Both the position numbers and the translations under genes were made by a program. Positions 8,549 through 60,134 of a stretch of 64,000 nucleotides of DNA are shown here, one piece after another. Every line of letters starts with the position of its first letter. The first letter of the stretch is position 1. Source of the stretch: an uncultured Candidatus Saccharibacteria bacterium (lineage in GTDB: Bacteria; Patescibacteriota; Saccharimonadia; Saccharimonadales; SZUA-47); NCBI GenBank assembly GCA_964536485.1, contig CAZHXX010000006.1, positions 6,777 through 70,776 of the forward strand. Reading direction: 5' to 3'. Below the pieces are notes generated by a model. That model was not told the DNA's origin. It ran no database searches and saw only the letters and a program-made list of their open reading frames with translations.

Positions 8549-9660
8549 AAATAGGTATTGTCTGCCCCTACAACATCTTCAAACCAGGAGGCGTCCAGGA
8601 GCACGTACAATACCAGGCAGCAGAACTTCGCAAGCGAGGCCATGACGTCACGATAATAACTCCTCGTCCTCGTGGTCACGAAAATGAGCCGACCCCAACT
8701 GGAGTTGTGTTTGTTGGCGGTTCGGCCCGAATCAAAACGCCAAGTGCAACCAGCGGAGATGTCTCGGTTACGATTGATGTTGATGCTGTTGACGAAGAGC
8801 TTGCAAAGGGTTATGACGTTATTCATGTGCACGAACCGGCTATCCCATTGCTTGCCAGACAGCTTCTTCCAAGAGTAAATTGCTTGCGCGTCGGCACCTA
8901 TCACGCCGCGCTTCCAGGCAATGCGCTTGGACGTTCACTCATACGTTCTTACCGGGCGTACTTTAAATCCATTATGCCCTATATTGATGTAATTACTGCG
9001 GTAAGCCCTGCAGCAATCGGCTATATCGAGAATCTGGTGGAGCCAGATGCGATAACATATATTCCCAACGGTATTTCTCTTGAAAAGATGCAGGCACCTG
9101 TTGGTTCAAAGCGCAACCGCAAGCAGATATTCTTTATTGGGAGACTCGAAAAGCGTAAGGGTGCTCTCTATACTATCAAAGCGTTTGAGATTCTTAAAAA
9201 AAGAGACCCAGAATTAGAGCTGTGTATTGGTGGCGATGGCCCCTTGCGAGACAACCTGAAAGCATATGTTGATAAAAACGATATTCAAGATGTTAAGTTT
9301 ATGGGCTTTCTGACCGACGAAGAGAAGTTCCATTATATGAGCACCTGCGGGGTCTACACCTCTCCTGCCCTCTACGGGGAGAGTTTTGGGATCGTTTTGG
9401 CTGAAGCAATGGCGTTTGGTGCGCCAACCGTCGCTCACAAAAACGAAGGCTACGAATGGGTGATGCAAGGTACCGGCAGGCTGTCACTTGTCGATGTACA
9501 TGACATCGAAGCTTACGCTGACCGTTTGCAATTAATGCTCGAAGACGATGAACTGCGTAATGCGTGGCAGAACTGGGCAAAAACCTATGTGAAGCAGTTT
9601 GACTACGCCCGCGTCGTTGACCAGTACGAAGCCCTCTACAACCAGCACTTGAAAAACTAA
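8545..9660 (+). CDS. GT4 family glycosyltransferase (PimA-like)
   Basis: 'MKIGIVCPY...PGGVQEHV' N-terminus, C-terminal 'ESFGIVLAEAMAFGAP' EX7E region; ATGA overlap with the previous gene. Confidence 0.85.
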   Translation: MKIGIVCPYNIFKPGGVQEHVQYQAAELRKRGHDVTIITPRPRGHENEPTPTGVVFVGGSARIKTPSATSGDVSVTIDVDAVDEELAKGYDVIHVHEPAIPLLARQLLPRVNCLRVGTYHAALPGNALGRSLIRSYRAYFKSIMPYIDVITAVSPAAIGYIENLVEPDAITYIPNGISLEKMQAPVGSKRNRKQIFFIGRLEKRKGALYTIKAFEILKKRDPELELCIGGDGPLRDNLKAYVDKNDIQDVKFMGFLTDEEKFHYMSTCGVYTSPALYGESFGIVLAEAMAFGAPTVAHKNEGYEWVMQGTGRLSLVDVHDIEAYADRLQLMLEDDELRNAWQNWAKTYVKQFDYARVVDQYEALYNQHLKN

Positions 9661-24050: not shown

Positions 24051-24121
24051 GGATTAGTCCTTTCGTTAGCGTCTTATTTATCAGTCGTATCGACCATTTA
24101 ACTGACTTGTTACCGAGAATT

Positions 24122-24151
24122 AAAAAACGTCTCTCGATTACTCGTGAGACG
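24122..24151 (-). terminator. terminator/attenuator hairpin in the rplJ leader
   Basis: CGTCTC/GAGACG stem (plus 3 inner bp) followed on the minus strand by TTTTTT; lies between the 148-aa ORF and rplJ. Confidence 0.5.
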
Positions 24152-24298
24152 CATTCTTATGCTCAAAAACAATATTTTCATATCGCCTCGACGGCACGAT
24201 TAAGTGATTTCTCACAGCCGTTGTCTACGGTAACTAAGTCAGTATATCATTCTCTCTGTTAATTGTCTAGCCAAGAGGCAACAAGATAATTATTCTGT

Positions 24299-50010: not shown

Positions 50011-50086
50011 TGGCAGGAGTGACAGGACTTGAACCTGCAACCAACGGTTTTGGAGACCGCTACTCTACCAATTGAGCTACACTCCT
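50011..50086 (-). tRNA. trpT: tRNA-Trp (anticodon CCA), CCA-3' encoded
   Basis: Hand-folded cloverleaf: acceptor AGGAGTG/CACTCCT, D arm GCTC/GAGT, anticodon arm GCGGT-CTCCAAA-ACCGT, T arm GCAGG-TTCAAGT-CCTGT, 76 nt. Confidence 0.9.
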
Positions 50087-50211
50087 ATGAAACACTTTGT
50101 TAATAATACCAGGTTCAAGCCAGGACTTGCGCCTTATTTGCTCCTCGAAGTGCAAGCACTCTCGTCGGCCAAGCTTGGAAAACTCAGAAGTTCACAGAAC
50201 TTCTTCGCCAG

Positions 50212-50262
50212 TGCAACCAACGGTTTTGGAGACCGCTACTCTACCAATTGAGCTACACTCCT
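50212..50262 (-). pseudogene. truncated tRNA-Trp copy (positions 1-51 only)
   Basis: 53-nt block 50212-50264 identical to 50036-50088; T-arm 3' half and acceptor 3' strand missing; followed by hairpin 50186-50204 plus TTTT. Confidence 0.85.
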
Positions 50263-51240: not shown

Positions 51241-51722
51241 TGCTACATATTGTAGGACACTTGCTTTTTGCCCTCGGACTGCTTCGCTGGTTAACGTGGG
51301 AATATAAGAAGTCTTTTGAGCGAACTAAATATGTTATCTGGCTTTTTCTTACCTTATTCTTTGCAATCCTTGGTCTATTGCTTTCAGAGTTATCTACGAG
51401 TGGTTTAGGAATAGGCAATTTCTTAATGCACGCTGTTGGTGGTGGCGTGGCCACGGCCTGCACCTACGAATATCTTAGGAGAAACCTCGGCTTAAAGCTC
51501 AGCTGGCGCGTTGAACTTGCCTTTTTCTTTATGTTCGTGAGCGCTTTTGGTGTGCTTAATGAGCTACTAGAATATGTTGCAGAACTTAGCGGTTACGGCA
51601 TATTTAGTCTCGACAGCCAAGATACATGGCGCGATTTTGTTGCCAATTCAAGTGGCGCATTCGTTGCTCTGCTGGGTATCTATGTACAAAGAGCTTTATC
51701 TGGAAAGGATAGTAAAAAATGA
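51240..51722 (+). CDS. hypothetical membrane protein
   Basis: 160 aa, 4-5 hydrophobic segments; overlaps neighbours. Confidence 0.55.
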   Translation: MLHIVGHLLFALGLLRWLTWEYKKSFERTKYVIWLFLTLFFAILGLLLSELSTSGLGIGNFLMHAVGGGVATACTYEYLRRNLGLKLSWRVELAFFFMFVSAFGVLNELLEYVAELSGYGIFSLDSQDTWRDFVANSSGAFVALLGIYVQRALSGKDSKK

Positions 51723-52309
51723 AAATACTTCTCGCTTCGCAGTCACCACGCAGGAAAGAACTGCTCGCAATGATGGGGCTTCAGTTTGAAGCAGTCCCAA
51801 GTGACTTCGACGAGTACTTTGATGATGCCCGTAGTCCGGAGGAAGTAGTAAAAGAACTAGGTCTTGGCAAAGCCCGTGCTGTAGCTACTCAGCACCCAGG
51901 TACAATCGTGATAGGGAGCGACCTTATGGTTGTGCTAGACGGGAAACAGTTGGGCAAGCCAGAAACCGAGGCAGAAGCTATCAAGATGTTGCAAAACTTC
52001 AGCAACCGCACACACGAAATCATTACTTCAGTCGCAGTGGTGCATAAAGACTCAGGCTATGAGAAAGTGCTCACCGAAACGTCATACGTTACTTTTGACG
52101 AGCTCCCAGAAAGTACTATTCTCGAATACGTCGCAACCGGCAACCCCTACGACAAAGGTGGAGCTTACGCTATCCAAAACCCACTAATCAAACCACACGT
52201 CACCATAGAAGGCCGTATAGATACCGTCCTCGGCCTCCCCACAAATCTCGTCGCTAAACTTCTCGCTGATTTTGGCTTTAATCTGGAATCGGTTGACACA
52301 ACTAATTAG
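51719..52309 (+). CDS. maf: Maf-like nucleoside triphosphate pyrophosphatase
   Basis: 'ILLASQSPRRKELL', 'IGSDLMVVLDG...GKP', 'GAYAIQ'. Confidence 0.9.
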   Translation: MKILLASQSPRRKELLAMMGLQFEAVPSDFDEYFDDARSPEEVVKELGLGKARAVATQHPGTIVIGSDLMVVLDGKQLGKPETEAEAIKMLQNFSNRTHEIITSVAVVHKDSGYEKVLTETSYVTFDELPESTILEYVATGNPYDKGGAYAIQNPLIKPHVTIEGRIDTVLGLPTNLVAKLLADFGFNLESVDTTN

Positions 52310-53728: not shown

Positions 53729-53944
53729 ATGAAAATTTATTACTTTGGCGAACTTATCGAAGACACAAACGAGACAAAGAATGACACAAAAAAATCACAA
53801 GAAATAGCCCAGCTTGCGTTGAATCTTGGCGAACAAGAGCCTGCAGAAGAACCGAAGAAGACGGGGATGGAGTCTATCGGCGATATTCTGAAAGATCTTG
53901 ATCTAAACATCGACATCTACCGCCCCCTCCAGCTCTCTAACTAA
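53729..53944 (+). CDS. small hypothetical acidic protein
   Basis: 71-aa ORF, GAGG SD ~10 nt upstream. Confidence 0.35.
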   Translation: MKIYYFGELIEDTNETKNDTKKSQEIAQLALNLGEQEPAEEPKKTGMESIGDILKDLDLNIDIYRPLQLSN

Positions 53945-54013
53945 CCCGCCTCTGCTCCTTAAAATTTATATATTTTGCTTATGGCTAGCATGAGCCATGC
54001 ACTAGAAGGACGA

Positions 54014-54488
54014 TGCCTGCCCTTTACCCAGCCTTACTTTTGCCTGCAGGTGCAAAAGTAAGCAAAAACCCCGCAGCCTACAATAAGAACATGATTGCCA
54101 TACAGAGAAATGACAGCGTTCCTTGCGGAACACAAGCGGTCAAAAGTAGTTATTAAATAAGAAGACTTTTGACTAGTCCTCGGAAATGATTCGTTGTCAT
54201 TTCTCTGTATGGCATCAGTCTTATTGTTAAAGGCTGGTTAGGCTACAGTAGCTCTGTAGCTAGTCAGCACCGCAAGAAAACCGATGGTCTCAGCTAAAGA
54301 TTCTATTGAATCACTTCCGAGGACTAGCCGAGTTACTCTACTTTAGTAACTAACGAGGCCGCTCGCCGTTCCGCAGGAACGATAGAATCTTTAGCTGAGC
54401 CAATAGTGCTTTTCTTGCATGTTGCGGACTTTTTGCATACTTTTGAGACTGCAGTCAAAAGTATGGCGTGGGGTAAAAGGGGCTGGCA
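54014..54488. ncRNA. candidate large ornate structured RNA (unclassified); strand undetermined
   Basis: No ORF >=60 aa in 53945-54594. Closing helix 54014-54032/54466-54488 encloses two 11-bp hairpins, two ~165-nt rods with perfect 18-bp and 16-bp cores, and a 7-bp hairpin (details in findings). Confidence 0.6.
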
Positions 54489-54651
54489 CTAGCCCCTCAG
54501 AGCTTTTTGACTGTCAAAAAATAAGAGCCGTCTGTCGCGCGAAAAGCCACATTAAGAGTCGAAGACTCTTTCAAAAATACGGCTAAAGAAGGCATTGGAA
54601 AGCAAAAATATATTTAAAGAATTTAATAAAACTAGAAAAGGAATCTATCTT

Positions 54652-54933
54652 ATGCGTGAAGGACTACACGAACCCGTCTCCGTTCTCTCAATCTACTCAG
54701 AAAAAGTAAAAATCTTTAAGCCCGCCATACTCACCTGGCACGGCATCGACTACCGTCTCGGCAAGGTCGACTTCTACCACAAAACAAAAAAGGGTTTTAC
54801 CACCCTGCATCACTTCTCAATCTCAGCCAAAGACGAATCCGTCTACTTCAAGCTTCTCTTTGACGCCAGCACGCTCAACTGGACGCTAGAAGAATATCAA
54901 ATGGCCGGAGAAACTCAGGCTCACTATGGGTAA
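54652..54933 (+). CDS. hypothetical protein
   Basis: Track ORF (TTG 54595) probably starts at ATG 54652 (AAAGGA upstream); 93 aa. Confidence 0.45.
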   Translation: MREGLHEPVSVLSIYSEKVKIFKPAILTWHGIDYRLGKVDFYHKTKKGFTTLHHFSISAKDESVYFKLLFDASTLNWTLEEYQMAGETQAHYG

Positions 54934-55015
54934 ATTACCTCCATAGTCCTTGAGCACTTATACAGTTAGCATTTTTCTTAGCGCAGTAGTAAATTAAATT
55001 TAGGTAGAAGTAACC

Positions 55016-55423
55016 ATGTATAAAACTTCAGTTACAAGAAATCCAGGAACGTCCTATGGGGAACTTATGAAAAGTGCTCGTAAGACTTTTCATAGAATTC
55101 AGAAGATGACACCTCGTAGGCAGGCCTATATAAGATCTGCTTACTTTAAAAAGAATAAGGTTTTTGTAACGCTTTTCTGGCATCATCTTGCTCAGAAGCA
55201 CCCTGCGGAGCAGGCAAAAAGGCTAAAGTTCTACGATGCGGCGATTGAGCTCATAAGACATACATCTCAGACTCCAGAGACAATTTTTGATAAAGGTAAC
55301 CTGGAGATACTATTGCATCGTTTTCAGGGAGAAACAAAAGAGGGCTTCAAGTTCAGTGTACAGATAAAAGAGCAAAAAAGAACCGGAAGAAAAGACTTCA
55401 TGTCGGTATTTCCCAAAAAATAA
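55016..55423 (+). CDS. hypothetical basic protein
   Basis: 135-aa ORF, no motif I can name with confidence. Confidence 0.5.
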   Translation: MYKTSVTRNPGTSYGELMKSARKTFHRIQKMTPRRQAYIRSAYFKKNKVFVTLFWHHLAQKHPAEQAKRLKFYDAAIELIRHTSQTPETIFDKGNLEILLHRFQGETKEGFKFSVQIKEQKRTGRKDFMSVFPKK

Positions 55424-55545
55424 AGAACTCCCGCTGATGTGGCGTTGAAACCACGGTGCCGGAGATCTTGTTTAAATAGTAGCAAATCATATGCACATTG
55501 TCAATCTGCCTATGGTTAAGCTGATGGAAACCTGTAAATAATAAA

Positions 55546-55803
55546 CTATATTTCTAAAACCGCAGGAACAAACGTCCCAGCAAGAAGAGCTTCACGGTTG
55601 CTCTTCATTACACAGGCGCCACTTTCGTTTGCAATAGAACCAAAGAGGCCACTTTGTATGGTGCGGAGACAGCCCGGGATGCGACACGTCGTATTTTTGC
55701 CAGCAGGCGGCATTGGCGCTGTTTCAGCACAAGGAACTACTTCGGTAGGCAAGATTTCTACTGACTCAGGGGAAGCTTGTCTTACGAAAACTGGAGTATT
55801 CAT
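55546..55803 (-). CDS. hypothetical 85-aa Cys-containing protein, leaderless
   Basis: ATG 55803 lies 8 nt downstream of a perfect consensus promoter. Confidence 0.4.
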   Translation of the reverse strand: MNTPVFVRQASPESVEILPTEVVPCAETAPMPPAGKNTTCRIPGCLRTIQSGLFGSIANESGACVMKSNREALLAGTFVPAVLEI

Positions 55804-55811
55804 AATATTAT

Positions 55812-55840
55812 ATTATAACAAATTATGAACAATATGTCAA
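55812..55840 (-). promoter_or_regulatory. perfect consensus sigma70 promoter (TTGACA-17-TATAAT)
   Basis: Minus strand: TTGACA (55840-55835), tattgttcataatttgt (17 nt), TATAAT (55817-55812), 8 nt, ATG. Confidence 0.65.
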
Positions 55841-56178
55841 TACACTCATCTGTTTTAGGGCCTTGTCTACAGCATCGTCTTGAAACTGATGAATCATGGT
55901 TTGAAAATGACCGAATCATTGCCGAGGACCAGTCCGGCTACTCCTTTTCAGTAACTAGCCGGATCGCTTGCGTCCCGAGATCGTGTTACCTTTCACACAC
56001 AAGCAATCTTGTATTGCTTGCTGTCGGAAAGGTTGCTTGTCGGGCACGGTCAGTTTTGAGCCATGTTCAATCATGTTTTCAAGAGGGCTGCGGCTCTTTT
56101 GCTAACTTTTCCAGCTGCTGGGAAAAGTTAGTCCTGGGTCAAGGGACGAAGTCGCCCTTGCAGAAAAGGCCTTTATGA
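55825..56178 (+). CDS. doubtful ORF (117 aa) versus structured leader upstream of the Y-family polymerase
   Basis: Ends in an ATGA overlap with the polymerase start (coupling-like), but Cys/Ser-rich junk-like composition and 4 strong hairpins inside. Confidence 0.25.
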   Translation: MNNMSIHSSVLGPCLQHRLETDESWFENDRIIAEDQSGYSFSVTSRIACVPRSCYLSHTSNLVLLAVGKVACRARSVLSHVQSCFQEGCGSFANFSSCWEKLVLGQGTKSPLQKRPL

Positions 56179-57737
56179 ACAATCTTCCGCTCAACAAACA
56201 ACTTCCCTATACGATGCACATCGACCTCAATTCGTGTTTTGCTATTATCGAGCAACAAGCAAATCGGCTTTTGCGAGGCAAACCAGTCGGCATCGCCGCC
56301 TATGACACGCCCAGAGGCTTCGTACTTGCAGCCAGCTATGAAGCTAAAGCCAAGGGGGTGAAGCTTGGGGTAAACGTAGAGCAGTCGCGAGCATTGTGCC
56401 CAGGGATCATCATTCTTACGCCTGACCCCGCTAAATATCGTGAAGCCCACAAACGCTTCAAAGAGTTATTGCTAGAGTACACGCCAAATGTAGTGCCAAA
56501 GAGCATCGATGAGTTCGTATTAGACATGAGCTCTTCACCAGAGCTCAGAAGAGTGAAGGATGAATTACGGATGAAGAACAACACCCCCGCAGCATCTCAT
56601 AACTCATCATTCATAACTCGTCACTCAGAGCCCCCTCAACTATCAACTGTCGATCCTCAAGCCTCAGAATCAGACCGGCTTCTTCACAACGAGGCCATGA
56701 AATTAATTGGCCTAAGTATGAAGGCGAAGATTCGTGAGCGTCTCGGCGAATGGGTGACGGTCAACGTAGGGATTAGCACTAATCGCTTCTTGGCTAAATA
56801 TGCCGCCGGCTTTGGCAAGCCAGACGGCATGACACTCATCGACCATACTAACCTTAGAGATTACTACCGATGTCGCACGCCTCAGACTTGTGCTAGTTTT
56901 AATTCTGCTCAAAAGCCGGTCGATCGCTGTGAGTCGTGCGGGGGGATGAAGTTGGTGGACTTGCCAGGTATCAACGTCCGTTACCGAGCCCGACTCCGCA
57001 TGGCTCAGATTTATACCCCGCTCGACTTCCTAGAGGCTGACCTAAACGTATTACGTAAGCAAGTATTTAAAAGCATCGTGGGCTACTATTGGTATCTGCG
57101 CCTTCGTGGGCATGAAATAGACAAAGTAGAATTTAGTCGCAAAAGTATTGGGCACCAGTACGCCCTAAGCGACAAAACTACTGATATGGAGAAGCTGGAG
57201 CGTTTACTCCTGAAATTGTGTGAAAAAACCGGCCGGCGCTTGCGTAAAAACAACCTCTACGCTCTGGGCATCCATCTTTACCTTGGTTTTGTATCTGACT
57301 ATCCGTCGTGGGATGGCCCTGCCAGTTTTGAAAATATGCAAAATATTCGCTCATGGCATCATGGTCATAAGGTAGATCATCGCCTCTACTCAACCTCCGA
57401 CATATACGAAGCAGCCAAAAAACTCCTGCATCAAGCAGAGATACCTAACCGTGTAAAAATTATGTCCGTCCATGTCTTTGAGCTTCGCGATTGGGATCCA
57501 GAGCAGCTCACCATCTTTGATATAGAAAAACCTGTTGAAGCAGACAGTGGGACAAAGCATCGTTTGCAAACGGTCGCCACAGGTATACGAAGTGTCGGCT
57601 CCCGCAAGCGCGTCTCAGACGCCGTAGATGCTATTAATAATCGTTACGGTGAGTTTGTAGTTACTCCTGCAGCCATGATGGACATGTCCAGCGAAATCCT
57701 CGACCGCATCGCCTTCGGCCAAGTCAAAGATATGTAA
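56175..57737 (+). CDS. Y-family DNA polymerase, UmuC/ImpB-like, with insertions
   Basis: 'MHIDLNSCFAIIEQ' (DxN as in UmuC 'CDVNAFYASCE'), 'KPVGIAAYD..GFVLAASYEAKAKGVKLG', 'SIDEFVLDMS' catalytic DE. Confidence 0.85.
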   Translation: MNNLPLNKQLPYTMHIDLNSCFAIIEQQANRLLRGKPVGIAAYDTPRGFVLAASYEAKAKGVKLGVNVEQSRALCPGIIILTPDPAKYREAHKRFKELLLEYTPNVVPKSIDEFVLDMSSSPELRRVKDELRMKNNTPAASHNSSFITRHSEPPQLSTVDPQASESDRLLHNEAMKLIGLSMKAKIRERLGEWVTVNVGISTNRFLAKYAAGFGKPDGMTLIDHTNLRDYYRCRTPQTCASFNSAQKPVDRCESCGGMKLVDLPGINVRYRARLRMAQIYTPLDFLEADLNVLRKQVFKSIVGYYWYLRLRGHEIDKVEFSRKSIGHQYALSDKTTDMEKLERLLLKLCEKTGRRLRKNNLYALGIHLYLGFVSDYPSWDGPASFENMQNIRSWHHGHKVDHRLYSTSDIYEAAKKLLHQAEIPNRVKIMSVHVFELRDWDPEQLTIFDIEKPVEADSGTKHRLQTVATGIRSVGSRKRVSDAVDAINNRYGEFVVTPAAMMDMSSEILDRIAFGQVKDM

Positions 57738-58322: not shown

Positions 58323-60134
58323 TTATTTTGCAGCGCGTTTGCGCTTGTTGTGGTCAAGTTCTCGCTTGCGTAGGCGCAAGTTCTTAGGAGTCACTTCAAG
58401 GAGTTCATCATTCTCAATAAAATCAAGGCACTGCTCGAGACTCATGATCGTATGAGGGGTAAGCTGAACAACACCGTCAGAACTCTTACTTCGCATGTTT
58501 GTGAGGTGCTTTTCTTTGCAGATGTTCACTTCAAGGTCATCTTGCCTTTGGTTCAAGCCCACGACTTGCCCTGCATAGATTTGCTCACCCGGGCCAACAT
58601 ACAAAATACCTCGTTCCCATGCATTTTCAAGTGCATAAGGCGTGCTTACACCGGCTTCCCAAGCAATCAAAACCCCATTTCTAATCTGTTCTAGCGCAGT
58701 ACCAACCGGCGCATAGCTATCCAGTAGCGTGTTCATGATTACAGTACCTTTTGTGGCGGTAAGCAAGATGTTGCGGGCGCCCAAAAGTGAACGAGTAGGC
58801 AATTTATATACGAGCTTAGTTACACCTTTGTTACTGCTAAATTGGTCAATCAACTCAGCTCGTCGCTTGCCAAATTCCATCTGAATTGCTCCAACGTGTT
58901 CTGCTGGCACTTCTACGATAACTTCTTCAATCGGTTCTACTTCAACGCCATTTTCAACATGCGTAACCACTTGTGGGCGTCCTACTTCAAACTCGAACCC
59001 CTCACGTCGCATAGTTTCAATCAGTACAGATAGGTGTAATTCGCCACGTCCAGCAACAAGAAATCCAATTCCTTCTTCTTCAACACGGAGTCCAACGTTC
59101 GTTTCAAGTTCTTGTTTGAGGCGGTCACTAATCTGACGGCTCGTCGTAAACTCACCTTCCTTACCCTTTAGTGGGCTGGTGTTTGGCCCAAGATAGATTT
59201 TGAGCGTCGGTGCTTCAACTTCGATTCGTGGCAAGCTTTCTGGTGCATCAGCATCGGCAATAGTATCGCCAATTTGGCTATCAGAAATGCCAGAAACAGA
59301 GACGATGTCTCCTGCGCTAGCTGAATCTATCTCGATAAACTGCAAGCCAACAGTTCTATAAATGCGGTCAATTTTTCCCTTCTTGCTGCCATTTTCTTGA
59401 CACAGTACAACCGGTTGACCCTTCTTTACTGTGCCACGCTCAACGCGCCCAACAGAATACTTTCCTTGGAAAGAGTCATAACGCAGTGCAGAAACAAGAA
59501 GCTGGAATGTTCCTTCGCTTGAGACTTGAGGTGCAGAAATGTCGTTGATAATCGCATCAAAGATAGGCGTGAGGTCGGCATCTGCGGTTGCGTCAGCCGG
59601 TACGCTTTCCCAAGCCTTTGCTTCCCTTCCAATCGCGTAGTAAGTTGGGTAATGAAGCTGATCTTCATGAATTGCAAGTTCCAAGAATAGGTCTGCAAGC
59701 TCATCCTCAACTTCTCCAAGCCGTCGAGCAGGCTTATCTATCTTATTTATCACCACAATTGGTTTTAGACCTAAGCCAAGCGCTTTGCTCAAAACAAACT
59801 TCGTTTGTGGCATCGGGCCTTCTTGAGCATCAACAACCAAAATAACACCGTCAGCCATGCGAAGTGTTCTTTCTACCTCACCACTAAAGTCAGCGTGCCC
59901 CGGTGTGTCGATAATATTAATTCGGAAACCTTGGTAGTCAACAGCAGTAATCTTAGCGGTAATCGTAATACCACGTTCGCGCTCCTGGTCGCCACTGTCC
60001 ATGATGAGCTCTTGGCCCATCTCTGCTTGGTTATCACGAAATGTCTGCGACTGTTTTAAAAGCCCGTCAACCAGGGTAGTTTTGCCATGATCAACGTGAG
60101 CGATAATGGCTATATTTCTAATCTTATCTTGCAT
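58323..60134 (-). CDS. typA: translational GTPase TypA/BipA
   Basis: '[19 protein letters not shown]', 'DTPGHADF', 'NKID'; 603 aa. Confidence 0.95.

Follow-up and report, generated by a model that had tools for sequence, protein, structure and literature searches.

What kind of element occupies positions 54014-54488 of the 64-kb window (the whole stretch of DNA that was analysed), where an initial annotation had described one almost fully paired structure of ~475 nt and proposed a single large RNA of the OLE, ROOL and GOLLD class? In the Saccharibacteria, as in other CPR bacteria, genomes are tiny and gene regulation is almost uncharted. The segment is indeed free of coding capacity, with no ORF of at least 60 aa anywhere in 53945-54594, and the helices that had been traced by eye are all present where they were placed. 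Hairpins Hb (54033-54043/54052-54062) and Hk (54436-54446/54455-54465) are perfect 11-bp inverted repeats, the arms of rod D1 (54074-54118/54192-54236, 45 nt) are complementary at 78% and those of rod D2 (54284-54306/54382-54404, 23 nt) at 91%. The only other place in the window that holds the 18-mer of 54098-54115 is 54195-54212, where its reverse complement stands. Folding of 54000-54500 gave an MFE of -226.2 kcal/mol (z -15.95) on the plus strand and of -233.2 kcal/mol (z -16.75) on the minus strand, and none of 100 shuffles folded as stably as the native sequence, so that the extraordinary structure (z about -16 on both strands) was upheld. The outer closing pairing P1 is likewise part of the MFE structure.

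Rods D1 and D2 are homologous in reverse complement (54173-54192 and 54308-54327, for instance, are 95% complementary), so that the closed global shape is the outcome of an inverted duplication. The segment 54014-54488 is a head-to-head inverted pair of paralogous units of ~250 nt, uA on the minus strand (54006-54250) and uB on the plus strand (54252-54496). Both P1 and the pairing and similarity of Hb and Hk result from the homology of the two unit tails; thus, of the P1-closed five-way junction proposed earlier, the P1 helix stands, while its interpretation as the base of one junction RNA is not supported.

Every unit follows the same plan, namely one long quasi-continuous rod of ~55-60 bp, a hairpin H2 (UACUUUUG...CAAAAGUA) and H3, a small hairpin whose sequence varies. 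From 5' to 3' on the minus strand, uA consists of the 5' flank CUGUAGC, the rod (D1, 54074-54236), H2 (Hb, 54033-54062) and H3 (AAGGGCAGGCAUCGUCCUU, 54006-54024); it was delineated by a match to CM R1 at 54027-54233(-) with 204.9 bits, by folds and by inverted repeats I1 and I5. The same order is found in uB, with its 5' flank, rod (D2, ~54268-54430), H2 (Hk, 54436-54465) and H3 (GGGGCUGGCACUAGCCCC, 54479-54496, kept as GGGGGCUGGCACUAGCCCCC in the homologous loci L027 and L028), and here the CM R1 match at 54265-54471(+) with 190.1 bits was accompanied by inverted repeats I2 and I6 and the fold of H3. The conserved 5' flanks (CUGUAGC) of both units jointly build the central hairpin, to which no strand is assigned (54242-54260, GCTACAG-TAGCT-CTGTAGC, from sequence and fold). 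An AGTAGCT-centred spacer lies likewise between the members of the further head-to-head pairs, which were found in L084, L023 and L010. In head-to-head pairs the two 5' ends are 31-65 nt apart. A third unit, u2 (55850-56174, plus strand), was recovered with nhmmer and with a CM match at 55870-56137(+) of 128.1 bits, and folds with z -6.7. It comprises a 5' flank with GGGCCUU (55858-55864), a rod with one apical hairpin extended by 65 nt, H2 (56102-56131) and H3 (56141-56159).

The rod arms of uA, uB and u2 are mutually unrelated in sequence, yet each arm complements its own partner, with unbroken helices of 18 bp in uA and 16 bp in uB inside the ~55-60-bp rods, which exceed the 20 bp of near-continuous dsRNA expected of a leader processed by RNase III. 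Arms are the least conserved part of the unit and internal loops the most conserved one. Near the apex the rod carries conserved asymmetric internal loops (CGAAUCAyU / CCGAGGAC ... CGCUUGCGUyCCGCAGGmAC), and the apical motif GAAUCAUUUCCGAGGACUAG of uA (54173-54192, minus strand; conserved according to inverted repeat I3 with 95% complementarity, the motif scan and alignments) has its counterparts at 54308-54327(+) in uB and 55912-55931(+) in u2. H3 is a hairpin in nearly all units, each time of unrelated sequence.

This ~250-nt unit was previously undescribed and represents a novel family of structured non-coding elements. In the Rfam scan of the window the gathering score was reached solely by tRNA and the L10 leader, and Rfam 15 searched with 53900-54660 returned at best 12-17 bits (E 2.5-7.4), all from unrelated families; nothing at E <= 1 was obtained for the homologous loci L027, L084, L046, L029 and L001. 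Hence the earlier expectation of absence from Rfam holds both for the window region and for the homologous loci. Searches of phage and plasmid collections with blastn gave zero matches to the element, and L004, the sole match of the motif scan of viral contigs, was rejected as a chance similarity within a coding sequence. Short ORFs inside the element were also looked up for contigs with its interior or its other orientation, and none are on record.

Homologues permitted an assessment of whether the pairing is preserved. In the family alignment 90.8% of 825 cells are paired, compared with 38-45% in slid controls, and double changes occur at 43 of the 54 pairs; compensatory cells number 206 against 33-55 in controls, and not one of 500 shuffles attained the observed values of pairing or compensation. 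Comparisons of orthologues, which are independent of CM fitting, gave the same picture: pairing is retained at all nine changed pairs between uB and its L084(-) orthologue, and uB and L046 differ by 12 double compensatory changes. The substitutions compensate the helices of the unit.

The alignment also carries a strand signal. G.U cells outnumber A.C cells by 58:19 (~3:1) in the unit's own sense, one-sided changes between orthologues are of the WC<->GU type in 20 cases and of the WC<->AC type in five (p = 0.002), and in 12 of 17 units the sense strand folds with the lower MFE (Wilcoxon p = 0.013), the antisense fold being slightly more stable for uA, uB, L084 and L027u1. Distal units are antisense to the adjoining genes, yet their G.U signature is of the sense type. 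The view that all pairs are Watson-Crick has to be corrected, since three G.U pairs are present in uA and four in uB among the 54, each in the unit's own sense. The related statement that the strand could not be assigned is right for this locus taken alone, where sense and antisense MFE of uA and uB are near equal; the family as a whole does carry a strand signal.

Distribution of the units was followed across ~578 kb of Saccharibacteria loci and the 64-kb window. It comprises about 20 units in about 12 lineages, all within ~1.5 kb of a conserved gene pair, p93-dinB, so that the unit is tied to this locus in one subclade of the Saccharibacteria; the window has three units within 2.2 kb and zero elsewhere in its 64 kb. 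Numerous copies throughout the genome, which had been named as the mark of a MITE-like repeat, were accordingly not encountered, and the copies in ~578 kb all lie at p93/dinB. The p93 gene (54652-54933, plus strand, identified by tblastn synteny), whose start lies 156 nt 3' of uB, codes for a conserved 93-aa all-beta protein (AF2 model pLDDT 88.6) and accompanies the polymerase gene as its partner throughout Saccharibacteria. None of its 119 homologue clusters is named, and searches of Pfam, PHROGs, NCBIfam, PDB sequences and Foldseek gave no match. The gene 3' of u2 (56175-57737, plus strand) codes for a Y-family DNA polymerase of the DinB/IMS type (520 aa; Pfam IMS 5.4e-31, IMS_C 2.2e-14) that has homologues at 22 loci of Saccharibacteria MAGs. 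The neighbouring genes (Maf, TypA, DinB) indicate a chromosomal setting, and no recombinase, transposase or invertase was present among ~30 annotated neighbours (ORFs from 40 to 63 kb).

Placement relative to these genes is regular. In the window, L084, L027/L028, L046, L029 and L023 a distance of 45-160 nt separates a unit from the p93 ATG downstream of it. In the window, L027, L010, L011, L022 and L092 units adjoin the start codon of dinB, the u2-type units ending 25-50 nt ahead of it. Solitary units precede p93 or dinB in L028, L046, L029 and L011, as u2 does in the window. Thirteen of the 15 gene-proximal units are in sense (p = 0.004), the exceptions being L092(-) and L051(-), and lone minus units stand ahead of p93 in L092 and in the p93-dinB interval in L051 and L020; the divergent units L022B and L051 were recognised by eye and folding. 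Presence is patchy: L083, with a p93 of 95% identity, lacks a unit in front of dinB, many loci are devoid of units, and the ancestral arrangement has p93 and dinB adjacent. It should be added that u2 and a unit at another position in L027/L028 have apical domains of 95-97% identity, suggestive of conversion.

A compensated secondary structure in sense position directly 5' of a gene is what a cis-regulatory leader presents, and the reading that we prefer, to which we give not quite an even chance, is that the unit is a structured leader RNA module of a new kind that acts in cis at the translesion-polymerase locus. In u2, H3 is followed by the SD AAAAGG (56164-56169) directly before the dinB-like ATG at 56175, with no room for a promoter between the unit and the ATG. 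As u2-type units reach the SD and ATG, they must either belong to the dinB mRNA or harbour its promoter. The u2/dinB promoter probably lies in the AT-rich divergent region 55777-55845 (TTGTCT-18-CATAAT, 9/12), as judged by consensus match only; by the same measure, 55812-55840 on the minus strand holds a perfect sigma-70-type match (TTGACA-17-TATAAT with TG) directed away from u2. Within 54014-54488 the promoter scan gave no site of at least 9/12, weak matches being visible by eye only; a conserved promoter 5' of the units was not seen, and the 31-65-nt gap between head-to-head 5' ends held nothing convincing. Between H3 of uB and the p93 start a terminator-like hairpin, AAGAGUCGAAGACUCUU followed by UCAAAAAU (54554-54571, plus strand), was read from the sequence; it is tentative, being absent from the output of the consensus scan. 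The units showed neither a consistent U-tract after H3 nor a canonical platform of the terminator or antiterminator type.

Under the leader reading, the gene-proximal unit would be transcribed in sense within a 5' leader, that of p93 for uB and that of dinB for u2, and would act in cis on expression of the damage-tolerance gene. The folded leader may keep its 5' flank against the ribosome-binding region, a pairing seen for u2 (-17 kcal/mol, z -2.3) and, through different sequences in each case, for L011u and L022B (z -2.3 to -2.7 for the three). Such pairing is absent from L027u2, L010u and all p93-type units, and a universal SD sequestration, present in only three of 11 units, was rejected. 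The long rod with its conserved apical loops might be the site where a trans factor alters the fate of the mRNA; a dsRNA nuclease of the RNase III type would be one candidate, a protein or ligand that binds the apical loops another. The opposite, distal copy would stem from inverted duplication, rendering the ~450-nt segment prone to inversion, 'ornate' in appearance and self-closing.

In E. coli adhE, rnc and pnp and in phage lambda N, translation or stability is governed by a 5' leader with a long hairpin that RNase III processes. The units resemble these leaders in having an extended double-stranded stem in the putative 5' UTR right before the ribosome-binding site, in a 5' strand that may occlude the SD (u2, L011u, L022B) and in compensatory changes that preserve the structure. 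They differ in the much longer rod (~55-60 bp), the conserved asymmetric apical loops, the two extra hairpins and the inverted duplication, and cleavage by RNase III is hypothetical here. In any case, a strongly covarying ~250-nt element is tied to a translesion-polymerase gene and its uncharacterised, universally co-located 93-aa partner, and the units offer a concrete, testable handle on the control of mutagenic DNA synthesis in these episymbionts. With them, the few large structured non-coding elements of bacteria that have no known function gain one more family.

Could the units instead be local palindromic DNA repeats (MITE-, REP- or ERIC-like, or recombination-prone inverted repeats) with no RNA function? 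We consider this unlikely, at about one chance in a handful. It would make them selfish or neutral hairpin DNA that duplicates, inverts and is lost in the plastic p71-p93-dinB spacers, with the pairing maintained by cruciform- or hairpin-templated repair or by inter-arm gene conversion. Occurrence in both orientations, several copies per locus and patchiness among near relatives suit such a repeat, as do the assembly breaks or N-gaps that are frequent at the units, the nearly all Watson-Crick stems of uA and uB with no MFE strand preference, and the near-identity of the u2 apical domain to the differently placed L027/L028 unit. The sister genome L084 points the same way: ~54025-54478 of the window aligns with it at ~93% as reverse complement and only weakly in direct sense, so that between the two genomes the entire pair is flipped and the halves are swapped, with the units intact and a sense unit facing p93 in both orientations. 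ERIC, Correia/NEMIS, REPIN/BIME and BOX elements are similarly imperfect palindromes of probably transcribed spacers, in either orientation, of strain-variable occurrence and troublesome in assembly. These, however, have tens to hundreds of dispersed copies and conserved terminal repeats, whereas the units keep to a single locus, show no dispersed copies in the 64-kb window or the ~578 kb of related loci and no conserved TIR or REP core; their arms, the would-be TIRs, are unconserved but compensated and their loops conserved. A dsDNA palindrome should lack such an asymmetry as the excess of G.U over A.C (3:1, and 20:5 in orthologue changes), and the sense bias of gene-proximal copies, the lack of transposase or recombinase genes among the ~30 neighbours and the empty phage and plasmid searches speak against a mobile repeat as well.

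Somewhat less probable again is that each ~250-nt unit is an sRNA gene of its own, giving a trans-acting transcript (rod and H2, with H3 as 3' end), possibly a protein-binding RNA with a logic like that of 6S or Y RNAs, whose paralogues stand in either orientation around damage-tolerance genes. Plus and minus units both bear the sense-type G.U signature, lone minus units exist, the paralogues of one locus can have near-identical apical domains with different rods, and H3 would serve as a stable 3' hairpin, terminator-like in L027/L028 (GGGGGCUGGCACUAGCCCCC followed by AUUUGU). The U-tract after H3 is nevertheless inconsistent, u2-type units run directly into the dinB SD and ATG, no conserved promoter lies upstream, with head-to-head 5' ends only 31-65 nt apart, and Rfam gave no 6S, Y RNA or other match.

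A bolder form of the leader reading, which we hold to be doubtful and a little less probable than separate sRNA genes, is that the units are a new class of sensory leader RNA, in which a large riboswitch-like or factor-gated rod would control the error-prone Y-family polymerase and p93 at the RNA level with no repressor, and the inverted copy would make the region invertible, lineages or subpopulations swapping which paralogous sensor faces the operon. The fimS and Bacteroides invertons are comparable in that a segment (~450 bp here) bounded by inverted repeats lies directly 5' of genes and exists in both orientations in close genomes. In contrast to them, the inverted repeats here are entire structured units, a flip yields an equivalent architecture, no invertase is nearby and no asymmetric internal promoter of at least 9/12 is present, and the flip was seen between genomes.

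The proposal of one ~475-nt 'ornate' RNA (54014-54488) with a P1-closed multi-helix junction, as in OLE, ROOL or GOLLD, appears very unlikely now. If p71 and p93 are co-transcribed, one RNA would span the region and fold as described (z about -16), head-to-head pairs recur in L084, L023 and L010, and the fold of L084 also shows an outer closing pairing. Against this, conserved units are solitary in L028, L046, L029, L011 and in u2, the halves are homologous inverted copies, and the G.U pairs of each half lie in its own sense, so that one half would always be antisense within any single transcript; the L084 flip swaps the halves, and the outer pairings differ among L084, L023 and L010. With OLE, ROOL, GOLLD and raiA the element shares an unusually large size, a high degree of structure, a narrow phylogenetic range and an unknown function. 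Unlike them, it has a simple rod and two hairpins per ~250-nt unit in place of a multi-domain junction, takes a cis position at gene starts, owes its 475 nt to inverted duplication and has no covariance-model match among the Rfam large-RNA families even at E <= 10. That class is characterised by one conserved RNA of more than 400 nt with covarying long-range helices, and the conserved entity here is ~250 nt. An apparently 'ornate' giant RNA can thus prove to be a smaller module duplicated in inverted orientation.

Least probable of all is an element active as ssDNA, folding in an exposed strand (stalled forks, gaps, incoming DNA) and then serving the neighbouring translesion polymerase as a promoter hairpin or a signal for priming, with the inverted pair ensuring a functional hairpin on either strand: it would account for the otherwise unexplained inverted pairs and the linkage to a DNA-damage-tolerance gene, and the long imperfect hairpin of suitable size with its strand-specific, G.T-tolerant signature recalls the 200-330-nt imperfect hairpins, conserved loop motifs and strand-specific function of Frpo, ssi and ssoA, but these belong to plasmid or phage contexts and bear -35/-10 or RSB/CS-6 motifs, none of which was seen in the units (for -35/-10, in rods and centre by scan and by eye), the surroundings are chromosomal with no plasmid leading region, template-strand logic predicts the orientation opposite to that before dinB, and a chromosomal ssDNA promoter or priming element is to our knowledge without precedent.

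Modules of this kind systematically break metagenome assemblies and draw spurious ORF calls. One such call, 'orf117' (55825-56178), overlaps u2 and was rejected as a gene, its homologues being confined to identical contigs and the ORF being uncalled in L001. A simple two-orientation polymorphism was considered for the Logan contig ends at 54041 and 54477 and set aside, the fit by De Bruijn-graph logic being inexact. A pseudoknot in which the H2 loop pairs with the 5' flank CUGUAGC fits uA, uB and L028 but fails in u2, L010 and L046, and was dropped. Furthermore, H2 loops contain a 6-nt palindrome in eight of 16 units against 2.5 expected; kissing-loop dimerisation is not claimed, as a 2-nt bulge with a 2-3-bp extension and a UGCA-type tetraloop provides the simpler account.

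The initial annotation proposed a single large, ornate RNA of ~475 nt at 54014-54488, within an interval (53945-54594) free of ORFs of at least 60 aa. The interval is as reported, every helix traced in it was found at its coordinates, and the ORF-free, highly structured region is hereby confirmed. Hairpins Hb and Hk are each perfect over 11 bp; the arms of rod D1 (45 nt) and rod D2 (23 nt) show 78% and 91% complementarity, respectively, and the 18-mer at 54098-54115 recurs solely as its own reverse complement at 54195-54212. On the plus strand, 54000-54500 had a minimum free energy (MFE) of -226.2 kcal/mol (z -15.95), and on the minus strand one of -233.2 kcal/mol (z -16.75), with no shuffled sequence near the native value on either strand. 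Rfam 15 gave no match to the structured region, either at gathering thresholds or at E <= 10.

The element possesses a two-fold pseudo-symmetry that had been left uninterpreted: towards their apices, D1 and D2 are mutual reverse complements (54173-54192 vs 54308-54327, 95%), and Hb and Hk have nearly the same sequence. A third related copy in the window, at ~55850-56175, was detected with nhmmer using the element against fetched homologous loci, and alignment of the three copies resolved a single ~250-nt unit present three times, as uA (54006-54250, minus), uB (54252-54496, plus) and u2 (55850-56174, plus). In its own sense, the unit consists of a short 5' flank (CUGUAGC), a long rod with a conserved upper part (CGAAUCAyU, CCGAGGACyAGyC, an apical hairpin and CGCUUGCGUyCCGCAGGmAC), a linker (GCUGCGGnnUUUUUGC), hairpin H2 (yUACUUUUG-loop-CAAAAGUAr; Hb in uA, Hk in uB) and, 3' of it, a small hairpin, H3, which keeps the hairpin form in almost all units with sequences unrelated between them. 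The rod arms are the least conserved part of the unit and the internal loops the most. P1 represents the pairing of two homologous unit tails, and the central 7-bp hairpin is the two 5' flanks paired.

The apical domain of u2 (55905-55977) is 95-97% identical to those at L027 637-709 and L028 3266-3331, while the rods differ; the latter belong to the p93-upstream unit of another species, and u2 itself precedes dinB. Such similarity points to concerted evolution between units or, alternatively, to very strong apical constraint. The 117-aa ORF at 55825-56178 (plus), which overlaps u2 and runs with its stop codon into the dinB start, is almost certainly spurious: it has no homologues, and gene calling on an independent contig left it out.

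A covariance model derived from eight units recognised only uA, uB and u2 in the 64-kb window, two units each in L027, L023, L010, L084 and L092, and one each in L028, L046, L029, L011, L020 and L022, with a partial one in L085; these counts are not phylogenetically independent, several lineages being represented by near-identical contigs. Divergent units in L022 and L051-53 were recognised through folding and motif. In the ~578 kb of sequence searched, no copy lies further than ~1.5 kb from p93 or dinB. In an alignment of 16 sequences fitted to the model, standard pairs occupied 90.8% of 825 cells (38-45% with partners slid), both sides had changed in 43 of 54 pairs, and compensatory cells numbered 206 against 33-55 in slid controls; none of 500 shuffles reached these values. 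Unambiguous orthologues repeat this picture: between uB and the minus unit of L084 all nine changed pairs remain paired (three double changes, six Watson-Crick to G.U exchanges or the reverse), and uB and its L046 orthologue differ by 12 double compensatory changes.

In the unit's own sense, there are 58 G.U pairs against 19 A.C mismatches, and one-sided changes between orthologues gave 20 G.U and five A.C (p = 0.002). The MFE was lower in sense for 12/17 units (Wilcoxon p = 0.013), and minus- and plus-oriented units have the sense-type G.U signature in common. The earlier caution that the strand cannot be assigned holds for this locus alone, because uA, uB and their closest relatives have about equal MFE on both strands.

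The structured region is surrounded by chromosomal genes, including Maf (51719-52309), dinB (56175-57737; Y-family polymerase, domains IMS and IMS_C) and TypA (58323-60134, minus); no recombinase gene occurs among the annotated neighbours. By its polymerase homologues (best identity 75%), the window belongs to Candidatus Saccharibacteria. Gene order at the locus, p71-p93-(variable)-dinB-typA, is kept in 22 loci from genomes and 56 from metagenomes. The p93 gene (54652-54933, plus) encodes a 93-aa all-beta protein (AF2 pLDDT 88.6) without a match in Pfam, NCBIfam, PHROG or PDB, and stands directly 5' of the polymerase gene in essentially all fetched Saccharibacteria loci, frequently with only 1-40 nt between them; p93 represents a conserved, uncharacterised polymerase partner. 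The two genes adjoin each other in distant relatives (1-40 nt gap), and in the window's subclade the spacers of the p71-p93-dinB locus are enlarged and variable.

The p93-dinB spacer (54934-56174 in the window; L005-L092) is a plasticity hot spot, with small ORFs differing by lineage (p135, a 92-153-aa minus-strand gene, a 69-aa gene or, in L022, a putative membrane protein) and, in some cases, units. A perfect sigma-70 consensus (TTGACA-17-TATAAT with TG; 55812-55840, minus) is directed away from u2 and faces an 85-aa ORF (55546-55803, minus) with homologues in identical contigs only; a transcript from this predicted promoter would, if unterminated, be antisense to p135 and p93.

In the window, L027, L010, L011, L022 and L092, units directly adjoin the start of dinB, and there the Shine-Dalgarno sequence (SD) and ATG follow directly 3' of H3, as in u2, which runs up to the dinB ATG; such a unit therefore lies in the dinB mRNA leader or contains the dinB promoter. 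Others lie 45-160 nt upstream of the p93 start (window, L084, L027/L028, L046, L029, L023). Gene-proximal units are in sense in 13/15 cases (p = 0.004), the exceptions being L092(-) upstream of p93 and L051(-) upstream of dinB. Head-to-head (-,+) pairs occur in the window, L084, L023 and L010, and in L022 and L092 a gene is flanked by two inverted copies. Pairing of the 5' flank with the SD region was found in u2, L011u and L022B, with different sequences in each (z -2.3 to -2.7), and was absent from the remaining units examined. Units are patchily distributed: many relatives lack one before dinB, among them L083 (p93 identity 95%).

L084, a relative with 95% identical p93, holds the orthologous pair, with the uB orthologue distal and minus and the uA orthologue facing p93. 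It matches window ~54025-54478 at ~93% as reverse complement and its flanks align directly; therefore the whole two-unit segment has been flipped between the two genomes. Independent assemblies terminate within or beside units: Logan contigs end at 54041 and start at 54477, L006 has 100 N (9010-9109) at the site of the unit in its twin L028, and several contigs begin within a unit or 100-380 nt upstream of p93 (breaks or gaps: starts of L001/L002, L005, L014, L083 and L085-L087; end of L003; L006). These breaks may reflect either orientation polymorphism or hairpin-related coverage loss. The family is probably under-represented in MAGs, because metagenome assemblies repeatedly break or gap exactly at units.

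Comparative sequence evidence leads us to favour, tentatively, a new module of structured RNA at the p93/dinB locus that may act in cis from 5' leaders. This reading draws on selection on the structure in the sense strand, on restriction to this locus and, in several lineages, on a fixed place immediately next to the dinB start. Most plausibly, translation or stability would be controlled via the long rod and the flank-SD helix, with a gating factor perhaps acting on the rod or the conserved apical loops; the nearest functional precedent is that of RNase III-dependent leaders (adhE, rnc, pnp). An inverted duplicate beside a functional copy would generate the 475-nt object as a by-product, which, on read-through of the operon from p71, would still take on much the shape initially drawn within the mRNA. 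The leader model is weakest in that it leaves minus-oriented copies unexplained. The unit falls outside every Rfam family, and a literature search revealed no structured element described for dinB or Saccharibacteria; in kind, we would place it among structured RNA elements of the cis-acting leader or intergenic type, with an unusual modular, invertible organisation.

Two orientations, patchiness, inversion and near-perfect Watson-Crick stems would also suit a local palindromic DNA repeat, which we consider unlikely: a transposable repeat would keep its rod arms, yet these have diverged most. Neither the copy number nor the conserved ends of dispersed palindromic repeats were found in the loci searched, and with invertons the pair shares only inverted repeats and two orientations, with no invertase among the annotated neighbours and no asymmetric promoter within the pair. 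Independent sRNA genes, a somewhat more doubtful reading, would accommodate H3 and the sense-type signature of minus units. A single large RNA is very improbable, the 475-nt object being better read as an inverted duplicate of a ~250-nt unit with three copies in the window, and a hairpin active as ssDNA is the least credible reading.

Elsewhere in the window, a ribosomal protein L10 leader (RF00557, 62.2 bits; 24113-24248, minus) occupies its expected position upstream of rplJ. Adjoining tRNA-Trp (50011-50086), a 118-nt Rfam tRNA match of only 31.2 bits (50145-50262, minus), where ARAGORN called no tRNA, could represent a tRNA that is interrupted or carries an intron, such as have been described for Patescibacteria (PMC13011429).
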